From the IMG/VR virus record IMGVR_UViG_3300025732_000019: a stretch of 64,000 nucleotides of DNA; one strand, written 5' to 3'. Positions within the stretch are counted from its first letter, which is position 1; each line of letters begins with the position of its first letter. Under the pieces are notes generated by a model that saw only the letters and a list, made by a program, of their open reading frames with translations, was not told the origin of the DNA and ran no database searches. This stretch comes from a virus. Positions 3,001 through 33,608 of this stretch are shown here, piece by piece. Made by a program: the position numbers and the translations under genes.

Positions 3001-5439
3001 CGTGGCGGTCGAGAGATCACCATTTGCGAACGCGGTGTTGCTACTCTTATACAACACCTTGCGTAAGTTCATCACATCCGGTGTCTTCAGTGAGTATGCG
3101 AACCCGGCAGTGGCATTCAGTGTGTGAAACTCGATCTGCCCCTTCGACAATGCTGACGTGGTGTTCGAATACACTGCAGACGTGTTGCCCACGTAGTAGA
3201 CTTTTTCACGCGCCGGGTATCCGGTGACTAACGCCTTTCCGAGTGCGCTAAAGGTACGCGTATTGCTGGTTGACGAACCGTGATGATACGTGAACGACAG
3301 CACATACTGGCCACCCACAGACGCGACACTCGCATTGGACAGACACCGCACAGAAGAATTCACGTTTGCAGCATCTGCCCACTGAATGACTTGACCGTAA
3401 CCCTTATTGTCTGTCGTCAGATCGAATACAGTGAAGTATTCCTGTGCACTGGCAGCACTCAACGTTCCAACGGGCACGCTGAATGTGTTACCCGCAAAGA
3501 CAACGGACAGAGCACCGTTCGACGCACTGCTAAACGTACGTGTGTTCGATGCGGATTGCAGCCATGTGCTAAACTCCGCAGTAGCAATACCAATCGTGTT
3601 GGCCTTGACGAATCGTTCGGGGATTTGGTATAGCAGTGAGCTATCGTTGACCCCTTCCACATACGTATATCCTGCGGGAGTGCCGTCGAGCTTACTATCC
3701 GGCGCCACATCGGCTTGGAAGACCAGATTCGACGCATAGGGTGCGGCAGTATTTGCAGAACCAAACAATGCAAACGCATCCACATCGCGTGTCTGAAACT
3801 TCAACGAGTACGTGGTGTTGGCGTTTGGCAACGCAGGCAAGAACTCACGTAGAGTGACGTATGCGTGCGTCGCATTTCCCACCACATAGTTGTTCACGGT
3901 AAACGTGCCACTGACGGGTGAGTCGGCACCACCAAGCGTGATGGTTGCTCCTTCAATTGCACCATCTTTTTCCGGTCGCCCATTTCCAATCGTGACTGTC
4001 AGCGTAAACGCAACGTTGTTATTGACGGCGGCCGCCACCACATTACTCGACAAGCTCGCAAACTGCACGTCGCTGAAAAACAGTCGATACACGCTATTGT
4101 TCGCATACGTATCGATCTGCAACTGCGACGGCACCCGATGCGTTTCGATCATGCGCACCTTTGCGGTACCGATCTTGCTATACGCATACGTGCCGCTGGT
4201 CGCTACGTTGATCGATGCCGCGTTCGTGCAGTGAATATCAACCGTGGTCGTGTTCGCAAAGTAACTGTTGGGGGCCGCAGCCGACACACGGTTCGCGTAG
4301 ACGTAACTGCCTACCGACAATGCGAGAGTGCGGTTGTCTGCATTCGCGGTTTCTCGGCCTTTGCGGATGATCGTGTTGACTGTCTGTGTTGTTTCGATTT
4401 CGTAGCCCTGCACGTATGCTTTGCCGGCACCGATAGACAGGTAGAACGTATTCGCGTCACTTGGGTTTTCGTCAATCACGGGTACGAACGGGCGCACGAC
4501 ATAGTTGCCCGATTCATCGTACGTGCGACGAGCGAGAATATCATTCAGTTCTTCGGAGCGCACATATCGCTGTGAGGTGCGGGTGTATTGGATCTGGCCA
4601 TCCACGACACGGCACAGTTCAATGAAGTTCGCATCCGCATCTGTATCCAGTGTGCGTTTTGCTAACGTCAGACGCATGCGGAAACGATGCGCGCCAACGG
4701 CGCCATTGTTCGCGGGATCAAGCAGCGTCTCACCGACTACCGCATCCAACTCGTCGAGAATGTCTTCAGCGATCTCCAAGCCCACACGGTATGAGGGGGT
4801 GCTGCTCAACGCATCCAGTACAATCGTTTGGGGCTTCACATGCACATAGAAGCCAGAGACGAACACCACACCTTCATCGATGCTGGCCGTCGATGCGGCC
4901 GAGAACACTTCACTGTTGGTGCCCGTGGAGAAAGTCGCTTGCTTGGTAGCATCGGTAGCAAGCTGCACCGTGCCGGATGGCAAAAACGCTCCTGCACCAG
5001 CATACTTGAAGACAAGATAGTTATTGCTGGTTTCGCCATCGTCAACACTGACGTATTGCACGACGGTCGCTTTTGTCGTGTTGGCGCTGGTATCGAAAAT
5101 ATTGGTGGGCGTATTCGTATCGCGGTCGTAGAAATTCGTCAGCGTTGTGGCAGGCAGCACCTGACCACTGGTCGCTTGCACATCCACAGCAATTTGTGCA
5201 CCATACACACGGTCGCCATCACGGAACTGTGCGGTACCGAGTCGCTGCAATTGCGCTTGCAGCAGTGTCTGTACCTGTGTCAGTTCGCGAGACTGCACGC
5301 CATAGCGAGGGCGGAAGAGAATGCGATGAAAATCAAACTCTTCACCGCGTAACTCACCCGTAGTGGTATTCGCTATGGTGTAGTAGTCGTCGTAATATTC
5401 AGACCGTAGAATGTTTTGTGTGGTATTACTAATCGCCAT
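1..5439 (-). CDS. Large virion structural protein, DUF4815/VrlC-like (3' end beyond window; absent from ORF track)
   Basis: Minus-strand frame from ATG at 5439 reads MAISNTTQNILRSEYYDDYY...FHRILFRPRYGVQSRELTQVQTLLQAQLQRLG, matching the YYDDF..ILFRP...QARELT.LQ N-terminus of T4-like DUF4815 proteins; lies directly downstream of gp8. Openness of the full frame was spot-checked only. Confidence 0.8.
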   Translation of the reverse strand, partial: MAISNTTQNILRSEYYDDYYTIANTTTGELRGEEFDFHRILFRPRYGVQSRELTQVQTLLQAQLQRLGTAQFRDGDRVYGAQIAVDVQATSGQVLPATTLTNFYDRDTNTPTNIFDTSANTTKATVVQYVSVDDGETSNNYLVFKYAGAGAFLPSGTVQLATDATKQATFSTGTNSEVFSAASTASIDEGVVFVSGFYVHVKPQTIVLDALSSTPSYRVGLEIAEDILDELDAVVGETLLDPANNGAVGAHRFRMRLTLAKRTLDTDADANFIELCRVVDGQIQYTRTSQRYVRSEELNDILARRTYDESGNYVVRPFVPVIDENPSDANTFYLSIGAGKAYVQGYEIETTQTVNTIIRKGRETANADNRTLALSVGSYVYANRVSAAAPNSYFANTTTVDIHCTNAASINVATSGTYAYSKIGTAKVRMIETHRVPSQLQIDTYANNSVYRLFFSDVQFASLSSNVVAAAVNNNVAFTLTVTIGNGRPEKDGAIEGATITLGGADSPVSGTFTVNNYVVGNATHAYVTLREFLPALPNANTTYSLKFQTRDVDAFALFGSANTAAPYASNLVFQADVAPDSKLDGTPAGYTYVEGVNDSSLLYQIPERFVKANTIGIATAEFSTWLQSASNTRTFSSASNGALSVVFAGNTFSVPVGTLSAASAQEYFTVFDLTTDNKGYGQVIQWADAANVNSSVRCLSNASVASVGGQYVLSFTYHHGSSTSNTRTFSALGKALVTGYPAREKVYYVGNTSAVYSNTTSALSKGQIEFHTLNATAGFAYSLKTPDVMNLRKVLYKSSNTAFANGDLSTATDVTEYFTLDSGQRDNSYEYGRAIVNNGAASVIKPTGRLLMIFDWFQHNGIGYATVDSYLTSNNIALGLSYDTIPDYMSPRFNRKINLREVLDFRPTRSNYNFQSSALVYAASDSTSNTQFVDTTSGASYLTPVSDDVWNGSYQFYLARIDKIALYPDGAFHVIEGQANQSPVPPSDDNQGLLFYQVTVPPYTLADANNVPIDVKLRTYDHKRYTMKDLSRMEDRVAHLEYYTSLSQLERNARDQSITDQDNLERYKNGILVDGFVGTGVANVIDPDFTASIDTYAHTLNPGFRSTNFQFAVDSANSNTFGVSVVGDMAIPAYSQSAFVTQPLATHAISVNPFNIGSFYGKVRLSPAVDTWKSTTTRPAQVIDMGGPTQAWVDANLPSYTNWGEWDTTWSGTSVSGGSRQDWWVPENWTPNAHDWRSMRETTTSWQDIETTSTQQRSGTRFDYVSQTTTANFGNLVVDTSIVHHMRNRDIVFAADGLRPSATLYPFFDGVDVKNYVQRANKLRLVPTTTERAFFVGQTVYVKTPLSGTISTTTACSTITGTSTAFDEQLLPNQLVRVELSGTTFDRYISSSANNTSATLLSTAPATLAGATLSTLTPVTISDVASRVTGDTIEYTISVVRVVRDADNDAATPYPVRAGALANSSGSGSTLIVPSSARGSSFTLNVNTAIVASGVVRAYNDGTHIIRFESDMTTDTVSGNPRIYFVSGPGAGQFATINTASYNVSTKSATLVTAGLSNITVGSTIYSIGNMTSESFLANATVTASRAGTVSGAFHLQDGTFAAGTRLFRLTDSASDVVSDATTTAETNYTASGLNVTEQNFSVSTRSVGINRSGVTDSRTQVDRTRVENTTVEWVDPLAQTFLVDARQYPQGVMVSSLDLAFATKPTDDIPVIVELRPVVNGYPSSNQLVPCLSDSGQATVSMRQDRVNTTTAPNFSDANTYTRFAFAAPVHLQPGLEYAIVVRSDSDAYTVYTGELGGTVIGTDQKVAKQP

Positions 5440-6842: not shown

Positions 6843-9800
6843 TTAGTTAGACAAACCGGAATCGGGTTCCTCCAACGGAGCCGATTCGTCAATAGCAGCG
6901 TTCGCGTAGTATTCCTGTGAAATCGTATTGCTGGCCAATGTATTGATTGTCGTATTGTTCCAGTAGTACAACAGATCGATACCTTGTCCCTGACGCACAA
7001 TCGTCAGCGTTTCTGTACCGTCGCGTTGCCCTGACGCATACAGATCGTTCACGTATGCTTGTGTCGGCGGTTCGATCAGCACTGTCGCTTGTCCATACCG
7101 ACCATCTGCAGACGGGTATTGTGCGGTATTACTACTTCCAATACTTATCGTGCCCGGCACATAGGTACCTTGTGCTGACCCGACCACCTGTTGCATACGA
7201 CCATTGACAAACAGCTTCAATGAGTCTGTGTGTAGATGGTTATCATCGAACGCCAACACGATGTGGTTCCACATTGTCGGGCTGATGGCATCATCCGACA
7301 TGATATTTGTATTTGCATCGTTCGCCACTTGCCCATGAATCTTTCCGGCGGAATCGATACTGAGCCAGAGCCAATCACGATCACCAAAGATCATCGCGTT
7401 TGCGGCAGGAATACCATCGCTCGCGTAGTACCAAATCGACAACCCACCACGGAACGTATGCGGTGCCGAGCGGCTATTGAACAATACCGCATTCGCGTTC
7501 GCAAACGTGTACCGCAGGTATTGCGTCGTATTCGCAAGCAACACCGAATGCACGGGATACGTCGGCCCATCGTCGCTCACCAGCGTCACACCCGCAGAAG
7601 CGGTCAGTGCCACAGTCTGCGCACCTGTACTCGACAAGTTCGCGAGTGTGGTCAATGACCATTGCATTTGTGGCGTGAATCCGTGCTCGTAAAGCGCATC
7701 GTCATAATCCATGCGCGTATCGTATTCTGCAGCACTGAAGAAGATACTATCTTCAGGCTTGACACCCGGAATTGGATACCGACGCGTACGTGCCACTGAC
7801 GATTCTCCCAACTGAATAACGTACTCAATGCCTGTTGTGGGGATCGTGAGCGTATTCACGTCTGTCGCTCGACGATTCAATGACGAGTCTACGGGAATGA
7901 AATCGGTGTATCCGGTTTCTGGCGAAAGATCCAACACGATGTCGCTCACCAGCAAGTACTGACCGTATGGTCGGAACCCCGCAGGATGCATCAGTTTCAA
8001 TAATACATCGCGATAGCGATCAAATGACTGGGCGGCTCTCACCACATAGGTATAGTCGTTATAGTAATTGCCATCCTGCAGATACTTATCAGAACTTGAG
8101 AAACTACGCGTGGTGGTAAACCGACCACTATATTGCGTCACGGCACCAAGCACCGCAGTCAATTCTGCGGTGATACCTGTTTGCCCAGAGGCCCGTTGCG
8201 CGGTAATACTGATGCTGTTTGCGTCAGTGTAAAGCACACCACTGTTTTGAATATCAATACGTGCAATTTGACCGCTACCCTGAATCACTTCAAGATCGGC
8301 ATTTGCAAACATTCCCGCAGCCCGACCACTCGTAGATACCACGGTGTCGTTCGCCGTCACATAATAATACAGTTCCTGTACACGAGCATCCATTGAGTCA
8401 ACGATCACTAACGGCGGTACCGCATACTGCGAACCTGCAGACGTCAGGATCACGCTGTTGACGGTGCCGTATGAGGTTTGCGCCCGAGGTGTGATCGTGC
8501 GCACACGACCCATCGGATACGTCGCATAGACGTTGGCACTGACGGTATTGGCGTTTCCGTAAATCGTCAACGCGGTATTACTCTCAATAGACTTCACGAC
8601 GACATCATAGCCTGCAGACGCGTTTCCGACGCGCATGTGTGCGTTGACGCGCAGAACATTTTGGAACACGGTGTTTGCGCCCACGATGGTACTGTTGCCA
8701 TACGTGGTGACGGTGCCTGTTTGGGTGTTCGCGTAATCTTGCTTCACATACACGCTGGTCGTCAACAATCCCAAATTTGCCACGTTACTCAAATAGAGTT
8801 TCGTCGCATTATACGTGTGAGCAGTATTGCCTGCTAATCCACCTACGAAGTAGCCAATCGCGTTCGCGGTGATCGTGGCAGTACTGGTGTTCGTCGTCAC
8901 ATCAAGAGCGGAGTTCAAGACAAAGAGTTTGCCTGTTGTGCCAGAACTTGTCGCCGTATTGGTGTTTACGAAAGGTGTTACCGAAATGTTATCCGCAAGT
9001 ATCGCGACGTTGGCTAATACCGCAGCACTATTCGTACTGTTTGTCCACACCCACGGTGTGTAAAAGGGTTTCGTGTCGGCGGCCGCATAAACTACGGTTA
9101 GTGCCGTATCAAGATCCGCACCATTGAGCGTAGTCACTCCGGTGGCCGCGCCATAGTCGGGAGAATCTAATGTGACGGTTGCGGTGCTGTTTGCAAATGG
9201 CTCAATTGTCAGATCGAGAAAAATTGCGGTCTTAGTATTAGTGAGTGTTTCTACATACCCGGCGGCGCCGTTTCCGGAACCGCTAAAGAACTCCACAGGT
9301 TCACCAACGGAAAACCCATTGCCGCCATTGACAACATTGACGCCACTGATGGAGCCATTTGTCGTACTGCGTACCACACCATATGCGTTATACCCACCAC
9401 CAGCGCCGGGGCCTTCCGAAATGGCGACGTAATCACCCACCGCATATTGTGTGCCACCGGCCCCCACGGTAATCGCGCTGATGACCGGCAGAATGCGTGT
9501 GCGCACTTGTTCATCGGAGTCGATATTGACTAATTCTTGATCGTATGTAAATGCACCACCAAGACTTCCGAAGCGGAGCGTTAATTCGTAGACGGGAATG
9601 CGCTGACCGAATGACGCTCCCACTACGTATGCACTCACGCGATCAACAATTGCCTGTCCGGTCGACGTGATTACGCGCTGACCGGTATAGTAGGTCGTAA
9701 TATCTGCACCGGCATGACCGTCAATCGGGGCACTGACTTTCAACGTAATCGGCGCCACCCACGTGCCGTCGGATGCCTTGAAGATATCCGTGCGCGGATA

Positions 9801-30043: not shown

Positions 30044-30072
30044 TTGACAGACACCGCGATTTCCTATATACT
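30044..30072 (+). promoter_or_regulatory. sigma70-type promoter of leader/tRNA array
   Basis: TTGACA-17-TATACT. Confidence 0.85.
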
Positions 30073-30117
30073 CTTATACATCGTGGTGATCGTATTACCA
30101 CGAATGGCAAAGGAACA

Positions 30118-30264
30118 ATGATGCGACCCCAACCGATCCACAGCACCGCACCGCAACATACGAGCACACGGCTCGTCGCGGCCGGCGTGTATCTGATGGG
30201 GTGGACGACACTCACCCCATACATTGCTGAAGATAATATGCCAGCAGGGGAGTATCCATCTTAG
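30118..30264 (+). CDS. Candidate attenuator leader peptide (48 aa)
   Basis: AAGGA SD before ATG; lies between promoter and terminator; 3' end carries GCAGGGG complementary to the terminator 5' arm. Confidence 0.55.
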   Translation: MMRPQPIHSTAPQHTSTRLVAAGVYLMGWTTLTPYIAEDNMPAGEYPS

Positions 30265-30289
30265 CGAAAATCACTTCGCGACGATAGTG

Positions 30290-30330
30290 AAACCCCTGCC
30301 GGAGTAAAATCCCGCAGGGGTTTTTTGTTT
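30290..30330 (+). terminator. Intrinsic terminator/attenuator upstream of tRNA array
   Basis: AAACCCCTGC...GCAGGGGTTT followed by TTTGTTTT. Confidence 0.85.
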
Positions 30331-30377
30331 TCTGAGAACTGTGGTATACTTCGAAAATGCTACAGTAATGCATATAC

Positions 30378-30453
30378 GAGCTTGTAGCTCAATTGGCAGA
30401 GCAGCAGCCTCTTAAGCTGTTGGTTGAAGGTTCGACTCCTTCCGGGCTCACCA
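30378..30453 (+). tRNA. tRNA-Lys(CTT)
   Basis: Cloverleaf, loop CT-CTT-AA, CCA. Confidence 0.92.
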
Positions 30454-30487
30454 CGTTTTTTGACAACTGCATATCATCCGAAAATGG

Positions 30488-30564
30488 CGCGGGAATGGAG
30501 CAACGGTGGCTCATCAGCCTCATAACCTGAAAATCGGTGGGTTCAATTCCCACTCCCGCAACCA
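30488..30564 (+). tRNA. tRNA-fMet(CAT), initiator-like
   Basis: C1:A72 mismatch, loop CT-CAT-AA, CCA; anticodon stem lacks three G-C pairs. Confidence 0.8.
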
Positions 30565-30565
30565 T

Positions 30566-30639
30566 CCGCATGTCGCTCAATGGCAGAGCAGCACGTTTAC
30601 ACCGTGCCTATGGGAGTTCGATTCTCTCCGTGCGGACCA
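30566..30639 (+). tRNA. tRNA-Val(TAC)
   Basis: GCACG-TT-TAC-AC-CGTGC, CCA. Confidence 0.9.
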
Positions 30640-30644
30640 GTTGT

Positions 30645-30728
30645 ACCGATGTGGCGGAAAGGCATACGCGCTAGTCTGAGATACTAGTGGGGCAACCCAT
30701 AAGAGTTCGACTCTCTTCATCGGTACCA
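30645..30728 (+). tRNA. tRNA-Leu(GAG)
   Basis: CTAGT-CT-GAG-AT-ACTAG, variable arm, CCA. Confidence 0.9.
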
Positions 30729-30733
30729 GATAG

Positions 30734-30819
30734 GCCCGATTGGCGTAATTGGCAGCCGCGCTTGCCTTAGAAGCAAGTGTCTTATTGACGTGTAGGTTCG
30801 ACTCCTACATCGGGCACCA
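30734..30819 (+). tRNA. tRNA-Leu(TAG)
   Basis: CTTGC-CT-TAG-AA-GCAAG, variable arm, CCA. Confidence 0.9.
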
Positions 30820-30828
30820 GATTGTCAT

Positions 30829-30918
30829 GGAGAGTTGGCTGAGTGGCCGAAAGCAGCAGGTTGCTAACCTGTCGTGGTGTCACAACCACCACTGGTTCGA
30901 ATCCAGTACTCTCCGCCA
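30829..30918 (+). tRNA. tRNA-Ser(GCT)
   Basis: GCAGG-TT-GCT-AA-CCTGT, long variable arm, G73, CCA. Confidence 0.92.
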
Positions 30919-30921
30919 GTT

Positions 30922-30998
30922 GGGGTTGTAGTTTAGTTGGTGAGAACACTCGCCTGTCACGCGAGAGGTCGCGGGTTCGATCCCCGTCAACCCCGCCA
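30922..30998 (+). tRNA. tRNA-Asp(GTC)
   Basis: CTCGC-CT-GTC-AC-GCGAG, CCA. Confidence 0.92.
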
Positions 30999-31003
30999 AA
31001 TAT

Positions 31004-31077
31004 TGGGATGTAGTGTAATGGGAGCACCGGAGTCTCTGAAGCTCTTTGTCTAGGTTCGAATCCTAGCATCCCAGCCA
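31004..31077 (+). tRNA. tRNA-Gln(CTG)
   Basis: Loop CT-CTG-AA, U1-A72, CCA. Confidence 0.88.
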
Positions 31078-31085
31078 GATTTCAT

Positions 31086-31159
31086 TACCATGTCGTCCAA
31101 TGGCAGGACAACGGACTTTGAATCCGTGAATGGTGGTTCGAGTCCACCCGTGGTAGCCA
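31086..31159 (+). tRNA. tRNA-Gln(TTG)
   Basis: ACGGA-CT-TTG-AA-TCCGT, CCA. Confidence 0.9.
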
Positions 31160-31165
31160 CGTTTT

Positions 31166-31250
31166 GCCGGGTTCGCATAGTGGCGATTGCACCGCTCTTG
31201 TAAGGCGGCGAGGAAACTCCACGTCGGTTCGAGTCCGACACCCGGCTCCA
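31166..31250 (+). tRNA. tRNA-Thr(TGT) with long variable arm
   Basis: CCGCT-CT-TGT-AA-GGCGG, extra arm GAG-GAAA-CTC, CCA. Confidence 0.8.
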
Positions 31251-31254
31251 GTAT

Positions 31255-31330
31255 GCCATCGTAGCTCAATTGGGAGAGCAAGACTTTCGTAAAGTCGAGG
31301 TTGGAGGTTCAAGCCCTCTCGATGGCTCCA
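31255..31330 (+). tRNA. tRNA-Thr(CGT)
   Basis: GACT-TT-CGT-AA-AGTC, CCA. Confidence 0.85.
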
Positions 31331-31333
31331 TCT

Positions 31334-31410
31334 CGGAACGTAGCTCAGTTGGTTAGAGCAATCGCTTGATAAGCGATAGGTCGCTGGTTCGACTCCAGCC
31401 GTTCCGACCA
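31334..31410 (+). tRNA. tRNA-Ile(GAT)
   Basis: ATCGC-TT-GAT-AA-GCGAT, CCA. Confidence 0.92.
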
Positions 31411-31417
31411 CACATGT

Positions 31418-31491
31418 GGGTCAGAAGTGTTATGGTAGCACAGTGGCCTCCAAAACCGCGAGCGTAGGTTCGACTCCTACCTGATCCGCCA
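31418..31491 (+). tRNA. tRNA-Trp(CCA)
   Basis: Loop CT-CCA-AA, G73, CCA. Confidence 0.85.
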
Positions 31492-31516
31492 ATTTATTGC
31501 GAGTTATTTAATTTAC

Positions 31517-31591
31517 GGCGGTATCTTCTAATGGTTAGGAAAGTGCTCTTTCAAGGCAACAATCGGGGTTCGATTCCCCGTACCGCTACCA
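31517..31591 (+). tRNA. tRNA-Glu(TTC)
   Basis: Loop CT-TTC-AA, CCA. Confidence 0.85.
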
Positions 31592-31604
31592 GTATTTTGA
31601 TTAT

Positions 31605-31679
31605 GCCGCTTAGGCTTAGACAGCGAAGCACGACATTGGTAATGTCGAGAGCAGGGCGCACGTCCCTGAAGCGGCTCCA
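31605..31679 (+). tRNA. tRNA-Thr(GGT), atypical T-loop
   Basis: CGACA-TT-GGT-AA-TGTCG; T-loop CGCACGT instead of TTCRANY; CCA. Confidence 0.7.
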
Positions 31680-31683
31680 TTTC

Positions 31684-31759
31684 GGGCCCGTAGCTCAGTT
31701 GGGAGAGCGCCGCCTTTGCAAGGCGGATGTCGCAGGTTCGATCCCTGTCGGGTCCACCA
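31684..31759 (+). tRNA. tRNA-Ala(TGC)
   Basis: G3:U70, CCGCC-TT-TGC-AA-GGCGG, CCA. Confidence 0.93.
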
Positions 31760-31764
31760 GTTTC

Positions 31765-31850
31765 GGCGCGTTCGCATAGCGGCAATTGCATCTGGCTGTA
31801 AACCAGACGACCCACGGTCTACGGTAGTTCGAGTCTACCACGCGCCACCA
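31765..31850 (+). tRNA. tRNA-Tyr(GTA)
   Basis: TCTGG-CT-GTA-AA-CCAGA, variable arm, CCA. Confidence 0.9.
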
Positions 31851-31852
31851 TC

Positions 31853-31932
31853 TTTACCGACCGATACGTGTAGAGTATATCCACACGCAGTAAGTCCATC
31901 AAGGGTCGCAACCTTGGGCAACGGTCGGTAAA
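31853..31932 (+). ncRNA. Unidentified three-way-junction RNA inside tRNA array
   Basis: 11-bp closing stem TTTACCGACCG/CGGTCGGTAAA, inner stems CGTGT/ACACG and CAAGG/CCTTG. Confidence 0.65.
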
Positions 31933-31941
31933 TCTTTTTGT

Positions 31942-32016
31942 TGGGATGTAGCTCAATGGCAGAGCGTTCGGCTGTTAACCGAATGGTTGTAGGTTCGAGT
32001 CCTACCGTCCCAGCCA
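31942..32016 (+). tRNA. tRNA-Asn(GTT)
   Basis: TTCGG-CT-GTT-AA-CCGAA, CCA. Confidence 0.93.
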
Positions 32017-32026
32017 TCTCTAAAAC

Positions 32027-32100
32027 GCGGCATTGGTGTAGTGGAAGCATGGAACCTTGCCAAGGTTCAGGTATCGGATCGTTACCGATATGCCGCTCCA
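32027..32100 (+). tRNA. tRNA-Gly(GCC)
   Basis: GAACC-TT-GCC-AA-GGTTC, T-loop ATCGTTA, CCA. Confidence 0.8.
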
Positions 32101-32101
32101 C

Positions 32102-32172
32102 GCGGGTATGGTATATCGGTTGTGCCTCGGCCTTCCAAGCCGAAGAAGTCGGTTCGACCCCGACTACCCGCT
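32102..32172 (+). tRNA. tRNA-Gly(TCC), no encoded CCA
   Basis: TCGGC-CT-TCC-AA-GCCGA. Confidence 0.85.
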
Positions 32173-32188
32173 TACCCAATCCATTTTT

Positions 32189-32263
32189 GTGCCGTTGGCT
32201 GATTGACGAGGCGAACGCCTGCAAAGCGTTTTCAAGATGGTTTGATTCCATCACGGCACTCCA
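32189..32263 (+). tRNA. tRNA-Cys(GCA)
   Basis: AACGC-CT-GCA-AA-GCGTT, U73, CCA. Confidence 0.85.
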
Positions 32264-32268
32264 TCTAT

Positions 32269-32344
32269 GGTGGTATAACTCGATTGGAACAGAGGGCAGA
32301 CTGTGACTCTGCTGAAGCGGGTTCGATTCCCGTATACCACCCCA
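32269..32344 (+). tRNA. tRNA-His(GTG)
   Basis: G-1:C73, GCAGA-CT-GTG-AC-TCTGC, CCA. Confidence 0.88.
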
Positions 32345-32347
32345 TAT

Positions 32348-32424
32348 CGGAGAGTGGGCTAAAGGCTGGCCGCCTGCCTTGGGAGCAGGATATCAAGCGA
32401 GTTCGATTCTCGCCTCTCCGACCA
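32348..32424 (+). tRNA. tRNA-Pro(TGG)
   Basis: CCTGC-CT-TGG-GA-GCAGG, CCA. Confidence 0.88.
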
Positions 32425-32428
32425 TCTT

Positions 32429-32503
32429 GGGTCGTAAGCATTCGTGGTGATGCTCTAGACTTTTAATCTGGCGAACCGAGTTCGACTCTCGGACGACCCA
32501 CCA
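32429..32503 (+). tRNA. tRNA-Lys(TTT)
   Basis: CTAGA-CT-TTT-AA-TCTGG, CCA. Confidence 0.88.
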
Positions 32504-32531
32504 TTTATCTTTCGGATGATATGCAGTATAT

Positions 32532-32607
32532 GTCGGTGTGGTCTAACGGAGAAGGCACGGTGTTTCTACCACCGAAGATGTGGGTTCGACTCCTACCACC
32601 GACACCA
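32532..32607 (+). tRNA. tRNA-Arg(TCT)
   Basis: CGGTG-TT-TCT-AC-CACCG, CCA. Confidence 0.85.
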
Positions 32608-32611
32608 GTAT

Positions 32612-32686
32612 ACCAGTGAAGCCGATTGGCGAGGCGCGACGCCCATACCGTCGTTGTAGTGGGTTCGATTCCCTCCGCTGGTACCA
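32612..32686 (+). tRNA. tRNA-Met or Ile2 (CAT) with C33
   Basis: CGACG-CC-CAT-AC-CGTCG, CCA. Confidence 0.75.
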
Positions 32687-32687
32687 C

Positions 32688-32765
32688 GGGCACCGAGCGA
32701 GTCTGGTGATTCCGCGCCTGTCTGAAGAGCAGGAGAATGTGGTTCGATTCCACAGGTGCCCACCA
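32688..32765 (+). tRNA. tRNA-Phe(GAA)
   Basis: CCTGT-CT-GAA-GA-GCAGG, CCA. Confidence 0.85.
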
Positions 32766-32772
32766 CATGTAC

Positions 32773-32855
32773 ACCCGCGTGTCGTAATGGCAGCCGAGGT
32801 AGACTCAAAATCTACTGCTCGAAAGAGCGTACTGGTTCGATTCCAGTCGCGGGTA
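32773..32855 (+). tRNA. tRNA-Leu(CAA), no encoded CCA
   Basis: GTAGA-CT-CAA-AA-TCTAC, variable arm. Confidence 0.88.
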
Positions 32856-32868
32856 CTATCTAAGTACA

Positions 32869-33420
32869 ATGAGCGCAGATATGGAACAGACACTCTTACT
32901 CAACGCAACCTACGAACCAATGGACGTCGTGCACTGGCAACGAGCGATGACGTTATGGTGTCAGGGAAAAGTGGAAATCGTCGAAACACATGATCGCGAA
33001 GTGCATGCGGTGACGTTCTCCTTCAAACTACCGTCTGTGGTGCGACTCCTTCGGTGTGTGCGTTCCAAGCGGCGGCCTGAAGTACAGTTCACACGGGCGA
33101 ACATCTATGCCCGAGATAACTATACCTGTCAATACTGTCGTCAGACCTATGCCACGCACGAACTGACATTTGATCATGTGCTGCCAGTCTCCCGAGGCGG
33201 GAAACGTAGTTGGGATAATATCGTCACGTGTTGTCTTCCGTGCAATCGTTCCAAAGGTTCCAAGACGCCACACGAGGCGCAGATGGTGTTGCTGCGTAAA
33301 CCTGCGAAACCCGCGTATACACCGGTGTTTCGTATCACACTCGGTATGCGGAAGACGCCCGAGAACTGGCGCGACTATTTGTATTGGTCAACAGAACTTG
33401 TCAACGACAACGATGCATAA
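32869..33420 (+). CDS. HNH endonuclease
   Basis: LLLNATYEP, RDNYTCQYC, TFDHVLPVSRGG...WDNIVTCC..CN..KG. Confidence 0.93.
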   Translation: MSADMEQTLLLNATYEPMDVVHWQRAMTLWCQGKVEIVETHDREVHAVTFSFKLPSVVRLLRCVRSKRRPEVQFTRANIYARDNYTCQYCRQTYATHELTFDHVLPVSRGGKRSWDNIVTCCLPCNRSKGSKTPHEAQMVLLRKPAKPAYTPVFRITLGMRKTPENWRDYLYWSTELVNDNDA

Positions 33421-33521: not shown

Positions 33522-33608
33522 TGGCGTGTGTCCGGAATGGCATCGGCCCTGACTGTTAATCAGTGCGCCCGAAAGGGAATGTAGGTTCGAATCCTACCAC
33601 GCCAGCCA
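33522..33608 (+). tRNA. tRNA-Asn(GTT) with long variable arm
   Basis: CTGA-CT-GTT-AA-TCAG, extra arm CCC-GAAA-GGG, G73, CCA; own TGTGGTATAAT promoter at 33490-33500. Confidence 0.8.

Follow-up and report, generated by a model that had tools for sequence, protein, structure and literature searches.

The 64,000-nucleotide (nt) stretch of viral DNA analyzed here (IMG/VR record IMGVR_UViG_3300025732_000019), referred to in full as the window, contains an array of 27 transfer RNA (tRNA) genes, all in one orientation, at positions 30378-32856 according to ARAGORN. Most of the array is enclosed by 2 complementary segments, here called arm 1 and arm 2, and the first of them is preceded by an element, GTTTTTTGACAAC, that resembles the boxA of bacterial ribosomal RNA (rRNA; rrn) operons. 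We observed that the arms are complementary and have been kept so by compensatory changes, that the boxA motif is conserved and identical to real rrn boxA sequences, and that the layout is one shared with a bacterial rrn operon. On this basis, the phage probably uses the rRNA transcription and processing machinery of its host for its tRNAs. With moderate confidence we favor the reading that the array is built as a pseudo-rRNA operon which borrows host antitermination and RNase III processing, a reading in which we infer, by analogy with the rrn operons, that Nus factors bind and bring about antitermination, when the helix forms, and that RNase III cleaves it.

Arm 1 (ACTGCATATCATCCGAAA, 30466-30483, plus strand), the leader strand of the long-range helix, is complementary at 18 of 18 positions to arm 2 (32510-32527, plus strand), the trailer strand, and none of 1000 leader shuffles reached this score. 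The boxA-like element (30455-30467, plus strand) is located directly 5' of arm 1, which follows the gene for tRNA-Lys(CTT) (30378-30453), whereas arm 2 follows the gene for tRNA-Lys(TTT) (32429-32503) and is located 4 nt upstream of the gene for tRNA-Arg(TCT). The arms form the longest inverted repeat in the array region, and a search of the 64-kilobase (kb) window with up to 3 mismatches returned these 2 copies only, with 2 or more matches in 0 of 100 shuffles. The estimated chance of some perfect 18-nt inverted repeat in 64 kb is about 0.03 per window, and by our estimate a chance pair restricted to 2 tRNA spacers would be far rarer still. The duplex between the arms had a predicted energy of -36.7 kcal/mol, as compared to -23.6 +/- 2.0 kcal/mol for shuffled leaders, and no local fold was identified in the spacers that hold the arms (-2.6 and -2.3 kcal/mol, z about 0). 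An earlier note on this DNA had described the arms as exact reverse complements that each occupy the spacer behind a tRNA-Lys gene, and this observation was confirmed. The note had also placed 23 tRNAs between the arms, a number that has to be lowered to 22 according to both ARAGORN and Rfam.

Related arrays were collected from metagenomic sequences by 3 routes. A search with the 574-amino-acid gene located upstream of the array identified the near-identical Logan contigs L006 to L008 and the ENA contig L004. Homologs of the HNH endonuclease gene that borders the array on its 3' side were used as a marker and identified L019, L020 (Joint Genome Institute), L028, and L106, while a scan with the extended boxA sequence identified L368. 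Five array variants were compared: those of the window, L004, L368, L019, and L028/L106. Where alignable, the identity to the window was 87% to 98% for L004 and 78% to 88% for L368. The gene order was partly common to all related arrays, with the genes for Val-TAC, Leu, Leu, Ser, and Asp near the start and those for Arg-TCT, Met, Phe, and the HNH endonuclease near the end, and HNH homologs flanked the arrays in L004, L019, L028, and L106. Outside this set, homologs of the 574-amino-acid gene beyond about 85% identity were found in other phages with no adjoining array, most HNH homologs below about 70% identity were not located beside related arrays, and exact-match scans of IMG/VR with arm 1 and pieces of the tRNA genes returned only chance or unrelated matches (L001, L003). 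Phages of this group have genomes with a mosaic structure around the array.

The leader spacer had its best ungapped complement close to the 3' end of the array, again in a spacer, in all variants. The arms paired at 17 of 18 positions in L004 (13334-13351 and 16326-16343; 7 of 1000 leader shuffles reached the score), at 16 of 16 positions in L368 (minus strand, 3444-3459 and 273-288; 4 of 300 shuffles), and at 17 of 19 positions in L028 (5461-5479 and 6967-6985; 17 of 1000 shuffles) and L106 (4717-4735 and 6967-6985; 18 of 1000 shuffles). In L019, they formed a core of 20 base pairs (bp) that included 2 U-G pairs (3887-3906 and 7644-7663; 0 of 1000 shuffles), and the helix continued imperfectly to 42 nt, through boxA. 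The arm pair in L028 was singled out by the ungapped complementarity test, although not by a duplex-energy search that allowed loops.

To compare the pairs, the leaders were aligned with MAFFT without the use of pairing information, and the partner of each base was then read off. The paired core corresponded to alignment columns 35 to 53, of which columns 40 to 50 were paired in every variant and the outer columns were unpaired in one or two of them (L019, L028, or L368). Both-sided changes were observed in 8 core columns (39, 44, 45, 47, 48, 49, 50, and 52) across the five variants, a set of sequences too small for a formal covariation statistic. In column 39, for example, the window has C-G and L368 has A-U, whereas L004 has an uncompensated A.G. 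The pairing was kept irrespective of which gene preceded arm 2, which was the gene for Lys-TTT in the window and L004, Val-GAC in L368, Met in L019, and Pro, the last tRNA, in L028. Arm 2 in L004 was identical to that in the window despite a strongly differing preceding gene for tRNA-Lys(TTT), and L368 contained a compensated arm 2 at the equivalent place before the gene for tRNA-Arg(TCT). The arrays thus contain complementary strands that flank RNA genes on one transcript, with a pairing that has been kept by compensatory changes in the 8 columns and by the G-U pairs in L019. The earlier note had counted a lack of conserved complementarity in relatives against its proposal, and the comparison went the other way, with complementarity in the same register, and with compensatory changes, in all five variants and beside a conserved boxA-like motif.

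These changes also bear on whether the arms could be sites in the DNA, either recombination sites for an inversion of the array or terminal inverted repeats that bound a mobile tRNA cassette. A perfect inverted repeat around a block of genes, next to a homing-type HNH gene and in genomes that are mosaic around the array, speaks for such a view. However, the arms vary in sequence between the variants and yet stay complementary, which is unexpected for sites bound by a protein and which argues for an RNA helix on the tRNA strand. Likewise, the U-G pairs in L019 would be mismatches in DNA and C.A mismatches on the other strand, so that the structure is one of the RNA transcribed from the tRNA strand. 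Furthermore, every recovered array had a single orientation relative to the upstream terminator or promoter and to the downstream HNH gene, and no invertase or transposase gene adjoined the array, where only the HNH gene is nearby. With neither conserved arms, nor a nearby recombinase, nor both orientations observed, site-specific inversion and transposon ends were rejected. The earlier note had already ranked an inversion site as the less likely option; the data lend it no support, and we attach hardly any weight to the arms as DNA sites.

Another view is that the frame is a functionless relic, a leader copied from a host rrn operon or from another mobile element, in which the complementarity was inherited and not selected. 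The single mismatch tolerated in L004 is in line with this, as is the fact that the closest relatives are only 5% to 13% diverged, so that identity among them says little. On the other hand, 4 different helix sequences with both-sided changes, and an arm 2 that persists next to changed tRNA neighbors, require selection on the pairing, and we see only a slim chance that the frame is a relic.

The boxA-like element was equally well conserved. Its core, G.T.TTTG.CAA, was invariant across all variants, and each array region contained exactly one site with at most 1 mismatch to GYTCTTTRANA, which was located at the leader in every variant. The element was found directly after the first tRNA gene in the window and in L019, and at most roughly 15 nt from the inferred transcript start, a few bases past the predicted -10, in L004 and L028; the promoters are predicted only. 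L004 has no counterpart of the first gene for tRNA-Lys(CTT), and its boxA opens the transcript. The boxA consensus is GYTCTTTAANA in gamma-proteobacteria (PMC5725501), and it is UGCUCUUUAACA in Escherichia coli and AUGAUCUUUGAAA in Bacillus subtilis (PMC13753749). Relative to GYTCTTTAANA, a gamma-proteobacterial consensus that may not be that of the host, the L004 form (GTTCTTTGACA) had 1 mismatch and the window form (GTTTTTTGACA), with a T at position 4, had 2. The single mismatch in L004 was a G at position 8, as in the B. subtilis consensus. The element accordingly combines a match to the consensus with a transcribed-leader position in a long untranslated operon, shortly past a predicted promoter.

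Identical sequences were identified in bacterial rrn operons. Among 120 sampled matches to the L004 14-mer TGTTCTTTGACAAC in species-representative genomes, 5, from five phyla, were followed 40-263 nt downstream by a 16S or 23S gene, and the L004 boxA was identical to rrn leader or spacer sequences over 14-20 nt. One of these 5 was in Aureimonas sp. AU4, and in its family 7 of the 10 loci fetched for the 17-mer TCTTTGACAACTGCATA (at most 2 mismatches) had the motif 192-312 nt upstream of the 16S gene. In one of these 7, the natural 16S leader L304, the motif has the TTTTTT form of the window and is followed by GACAATTGCATAATGG. The resemblance to boxA that had been proposed for the segment 5' of arm 1 is thereby borne out, both by the presence of the motif in all variants and by sequences upstream of 16S and 23S genes that are identical to the L004 14-mer.

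The same data can be held against a different explanation of GTTTTTTGACAAC, namely that an internal promoter has its -35 region (TTGACA) here, with no relation to the arms. TTGACA is the consensus of the sigma-70 -35 box, and it was present in 4 of the 5 variants. No conserved -10 element was identified 16-18 nt downstream in any variant, however, and a promoter scan made no call at this site. The conservation also reaches 5' into GTTCTTT, as expected for boxA and not for a -35 box, and the same 14- to 20-mers occur in transcribed rrn leaders. This explanation was rejected, and we consider it very improbable that the element is a -35 box.

The element is followed by an extension, CTG(A/C)ATA, which was found to occur widely, not only in bacteria but also in other phages and in mobile-element contexts. 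Because it is so widely conserved, the host cannot be identified from it. A host assignment was tried and rejected: CTGCATA fits Aureimonas, yet the 20-mer TGTTCTTTGACAACTGAATA was also present in Lachnospiraceae, Nitrospira, Bryobacterales, and other groups, in some cases at sites not near rRNA genes, and the exact 15-mer was found in only 1 of 201 sampled Alphaproteobacteria. It was also noted that TGTTCTTTGACAACTGAATA was located about 150-200 nt upstream of the Rfam pemK RNA motif in 2 Lachnospiraceae genomes (L186:862-1113 and L216:2461-2736) and upstream of a group II intron in L212, with no rRNA gene nearby. Signals of the boxA type may also lead long mobile-element operons in Firmicutes. 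In a metagenome-assembled genome of the Acidobacteriaceae (L281:6637-6700), 2 tandem units of 39 nt each contained TGTTCTTTGACAACTG, and a tRNA gene was located about 1 kb downstream.

The final bases of boxA are also the first of arm 1, which takes in the conserved extension as well, and the L019 helix continues through TCTTTGA, paired there with TCAAAGA. Because of this overlap with the boxA extension, and in L019 with boxA proper, the helix could have an alternative or added role in the release of Nus factors at the end of the array. One may thus ask whether the RNA helix is real but serves a purpose other than excision by RNase III, so that, after transcription of the array, the trailer strips NusB/NusE off the leader and allows the polymerase to terminate again, or so that the helix shields the precursor ends or keeps them together. 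Stripping fits less well with L028 and L106, in which the helix starts several bases past boxA and leaves it free, and a terminator directly after arm 2 was not found. Moreover, the equivalent helices in bacterial rrn operons are RNase III substrates (PMC10250234). We regard a purpose of this other kind as unlikely, though less so than the relic or the -35 box.

Under the pseudo-rRNA operon that we favor, transcription would start at a promoter just upstream of the array, and the nascent RNA would expose the host-type boxA at 30455-30467. By analogy with rrn operons, this element would load NusB/NusE, and hence the rrn-type antitermination complex, onto RNA polymerase, with the effect that an untranslated transcript of 2.5-3 kb could be made fast and without Rho-dependent termination. 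Arm 1, which covers 18 nt from the end of boxA, would remain single-stranded while about 2 kb are transcribed, up to the emergence of arm 2, and the antitermination complex may keep the leader near the RNA exit until then. The arms would pair as a leader-trailer helix that encloses 22 tRNAs, and host RNase III would presumably cut this helix, freeing the tRNA block from the leader on one side and from the remaining tRNAs and the HNH part on the other. The single tRNAs would then be trimmed by RNase P and further enzymes.

Several points weigh against this scheme. RNase P and RNase E excise tRNAs quickly, and arm 1 may therefore leave the nascent chain before arm 2 has been made, unless it is held by the polymerase. 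Four tRNAs and the first tRNA-Lys are located outside the helix, which is thus not needed for the release of every tRNA. A helix of 18 bp is at the short end of the range of RNase III substrates, and L004 tolerates its uncompensated A.G mismatch. The more distant arrays in L108 and L109, which start with tRNA-Lys(CTT), have neither the flanking complementarity nor a leader boxA. At position 4 of boxA, the window has a T in place of the C in the E. coli consensus, and the double mutation C4T/T6C inactivates the boxA of E. coli suhB (PMC5725501). No boxB hairpin or boxC was recognized, as there is no room for a hairpin from the start site to boxA in L004 and the leader alignment contains no conserved block similar to boxC, although boxA alone suffices for the antitermination complex (PMC10250234). 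Finally, the host may differ from the reference bacteria in its boxA and in the preferences of its RNase III.

The combination of boxA and tRNA genes was not restricted to close relatives. Fourteen of the 117 matches to the extended boxA in IMG/VR adjoined tRNA genes on the same strand, in several unrelated phages. In one such phage (L350), a good promoter is followed by boxA, and the next 15 nt pair with a site located 24 nt past the last tRNA in a cluster of 11; the score of this pairing is not significant on its own, although its position is suggestive. No clear helix was identified within the recovered contigs of the other arrays led by boxA. It is conceivable, if rather unlikely in our estimate, that the framing of tRNA arrays as pseudo-rRNA operons is a general phage strategy that has arisen repeatedly. 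In this case, the antitermination and chaperone complex of the host rrn operons would be loaded by boxA as the array begins, and the overlap of the helix with boxA would make the device self-limiting, with a trailer that sets the site of the RNase III cut and, at the end, also draws boxA away from NusB/NusE. A further possibility is that abundant phage RNA with boxA draws Nus factors away from the rRNA synthesis of the host. Big phages commonly have large tRNA arrays, whose kilobases of untranslated RNA have to escape Rho-dependent termination and be processed. A boxA and a closing helix around a transcript of tRNAs alone would imply that phages borrow the whole frame of rRNA transcription and maturation, beyond a nut site in the style of lambda. 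The type of boxA would also provide a sequence handle for guessing the host, and the arrays would offer a small natural system for the study of how distant RNA strands are joined by the rrn antitermination complex.

The region upstream of the array (30044-30330) contains a strong promoter (TTGACA-17-TATACT), a small open reading frame that ends at 30264, and the intrinsic terminator of this frame (30290-30330, plus strand), which consists of an inverted repeat (30290-30303/30310-30323) and a T run; a second promoter-like site comes after them. This layout, with the small open reading frame and the terminator ahead of the array, recurs in L004 and in L006 to L008, and the array may be fed by regulated read-through in addition to its own promoter. 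The latter is a putative extended -10 promoter, TGGTATACT (30337-30349, plus strand), which was read from the sequence; the promoter scan made no call at 30337-30349, and the counterparts at the same place in the relatives are GATATACT in L004 and TGATATAAT in L028. In contig L002 (3740-4005), a relative of the upstream 574-amino-acid gene with 84% identity is followed by a reverse-strand small open reading frame and, at the end of the contig, the 3' half of a reverse-strand tRNA-Glu-like gene, an arrangement unlike that in the window and on a contig too short for interpretation.

The cargo enclosed by the arms (30488-32503, plus strand) consists of the 22 tRNA genes, a degenerate tRNA-like slot, and a non-tRNA structured RNA. 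The first slot (31592-31683, 92 nt), in the interval from tRNA-Glu to tRNA-Ala, was not called by ARAGORN or Rfam. Its features are a 7-bp acceptor-like stem, a 3' UCCA, an unusual T-loop, and a stem-loop with UUGGUAA in the loop, which would give the anticodon GGU (Thr). The counterpart in L004 has 98.7% identity to it, and a regular tRNA-Thr(GGT) gene is located at the equivalent place in L019. The slot is probably a degenerate or atypical tRNA, and it may be the 23rd enclosed tRNA. The second slot (31851-31941), in the interval from tRNA-Tyr to tRNA-Asn, contains an 11-bp closing stem and 2 inner hairpins (-31.4 kcal/mol, z = -4.1), and this non-tRNA structured RNA had no match in Rfam. The array itself begins with the gene for tRNA-Lys(CTT), 5' of boxA and arm 1, which was called by both ARAGORN and Rfam. 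On the 3' side, the genes for the Arg-TCT, Met-CAT, Phe-GAA, and Leu-CAA tRNAs (32532-32856, plus strand, ARAGORN) are located outside the helix and are followed by the HNH endonuclease gene (32869-33420, plus strand; Pfam HNH_5, E=2.9e-17).

A second gene for tRNA-Asn (33522-33608) was identified beyond the HNH gene. The 3' end of tRNA-Asn(GTT) and 13 nt of its trailer are duplicated (31988-32029/33580-33621, 90% identity) on the 2 sides of the HNH gene region, and in L026 an HNH homolog is located directly 3' of a tRNA-Asn gene, which hints that the HNH endonuclease homes beside tRNA-Asn and has caused the duplication. Furthermore, the gene for tRNA-Lys(TTT) at 32429-32503 is very different from its counterpart in L004 (16245-16319), whereas the adjoining arm 2 spacer is identical and the rest of the arrays are 87% to 98% identical, which suggests that single tRNA genes are swapped as cassettes. 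The window encodes baseplate proteins of the T4 type. One of them, similar to gp6, has an identity of only about 33% to the nearest homologs in GenBank phages, among which no close relative of the window was found. The source is an uncultured, divergent T4-like myovirus.

The T4 tRNA cluster is one system for comparison. It consists of co-transcribed tRNAs and stable non-tRNA RNAs, with the homing endonuclease gene segB inside, and a role of RNase III in the processing of its precursor has been reported. The window resembles it as a T4-like phage with a co-transcribed tRNA cluster, slots for non-tRNA RNA, and a homing-type endonuclease gene, and here too the processing would fall to RNases of the host. 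To our knowledge, and in agreement with our literature searches, no boxA or cluster-spanning helix has been described for the T4 cluster. The nut sites of lambda are also phage elements that present a host-type boxA on nascent RNA to NusB/NusE, as this array would do. They require a boxB hairpin and the phage protein N, and act on mRNA operons. In contrast, neither boxB nor an N-like gene was seen here, and the layout is that of an rrn operon with a closing helix. The boxA sites of the suhB type outside rRNA operons (PMC5725501) are likewise located in the leader of a transcript other than rRNA and serve the host Nus complex, but they reside in bacterial mRNA leaders, often have the opposite effect, and lack a closing helix.

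The closest likeness is to the rrn operons, in which boxA is necessary and sufficient for an antitermination complex that resists Rho and speeds elongation, and in which the leader-trailer helices are RNase III substrates, with a helix of more than 17 bp being essential for the formation of the 30S subunit (PMC10250234). The rrn operon leader and the phage array share a promoter, a boxA of one type, a nearby leader strand, kilobases of structured untranslated RNA, and a trailer strand, and the phage helix, of 16-20 bp or longer, has been kept by covariation. In the rrn operon of Aureimonas sp. AU4 (L310), boxA is followed after 13 nt by a leader strand of 35 nt, the 16S gene, and a pairing trailer about 170 nt past the 16S 3' end. 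This order of boxA, leader strand, 16S, and trailer strand corresponds to the layout in the phage, although the phage arms are not copies of the Aureimonas helix. The resemblance of the array to an rRNA operon that the earlier note had suggested is thus supported by a natural example of the layout as well as by the pairing with its compensatory changes and the boxA identity. The differences are that the owner is a virus, that its cargo consists of tRNAs only with no rRNA, that boxB and boxC were not recognized, and that the phage helix abuts or overlaps the boxA extension, rather than starting 13 or more nt later, and is shorter than the 35 bp in Aureimonas. Our literature searches on phage tRNA clusters together with antitermination, boxA, or RNase III turned up no account of a frame like this. 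Its separate elements have precedents in rrn operons and lambda nut sites, and what is new is their combination around a phage transcript that carries only tRNAs.

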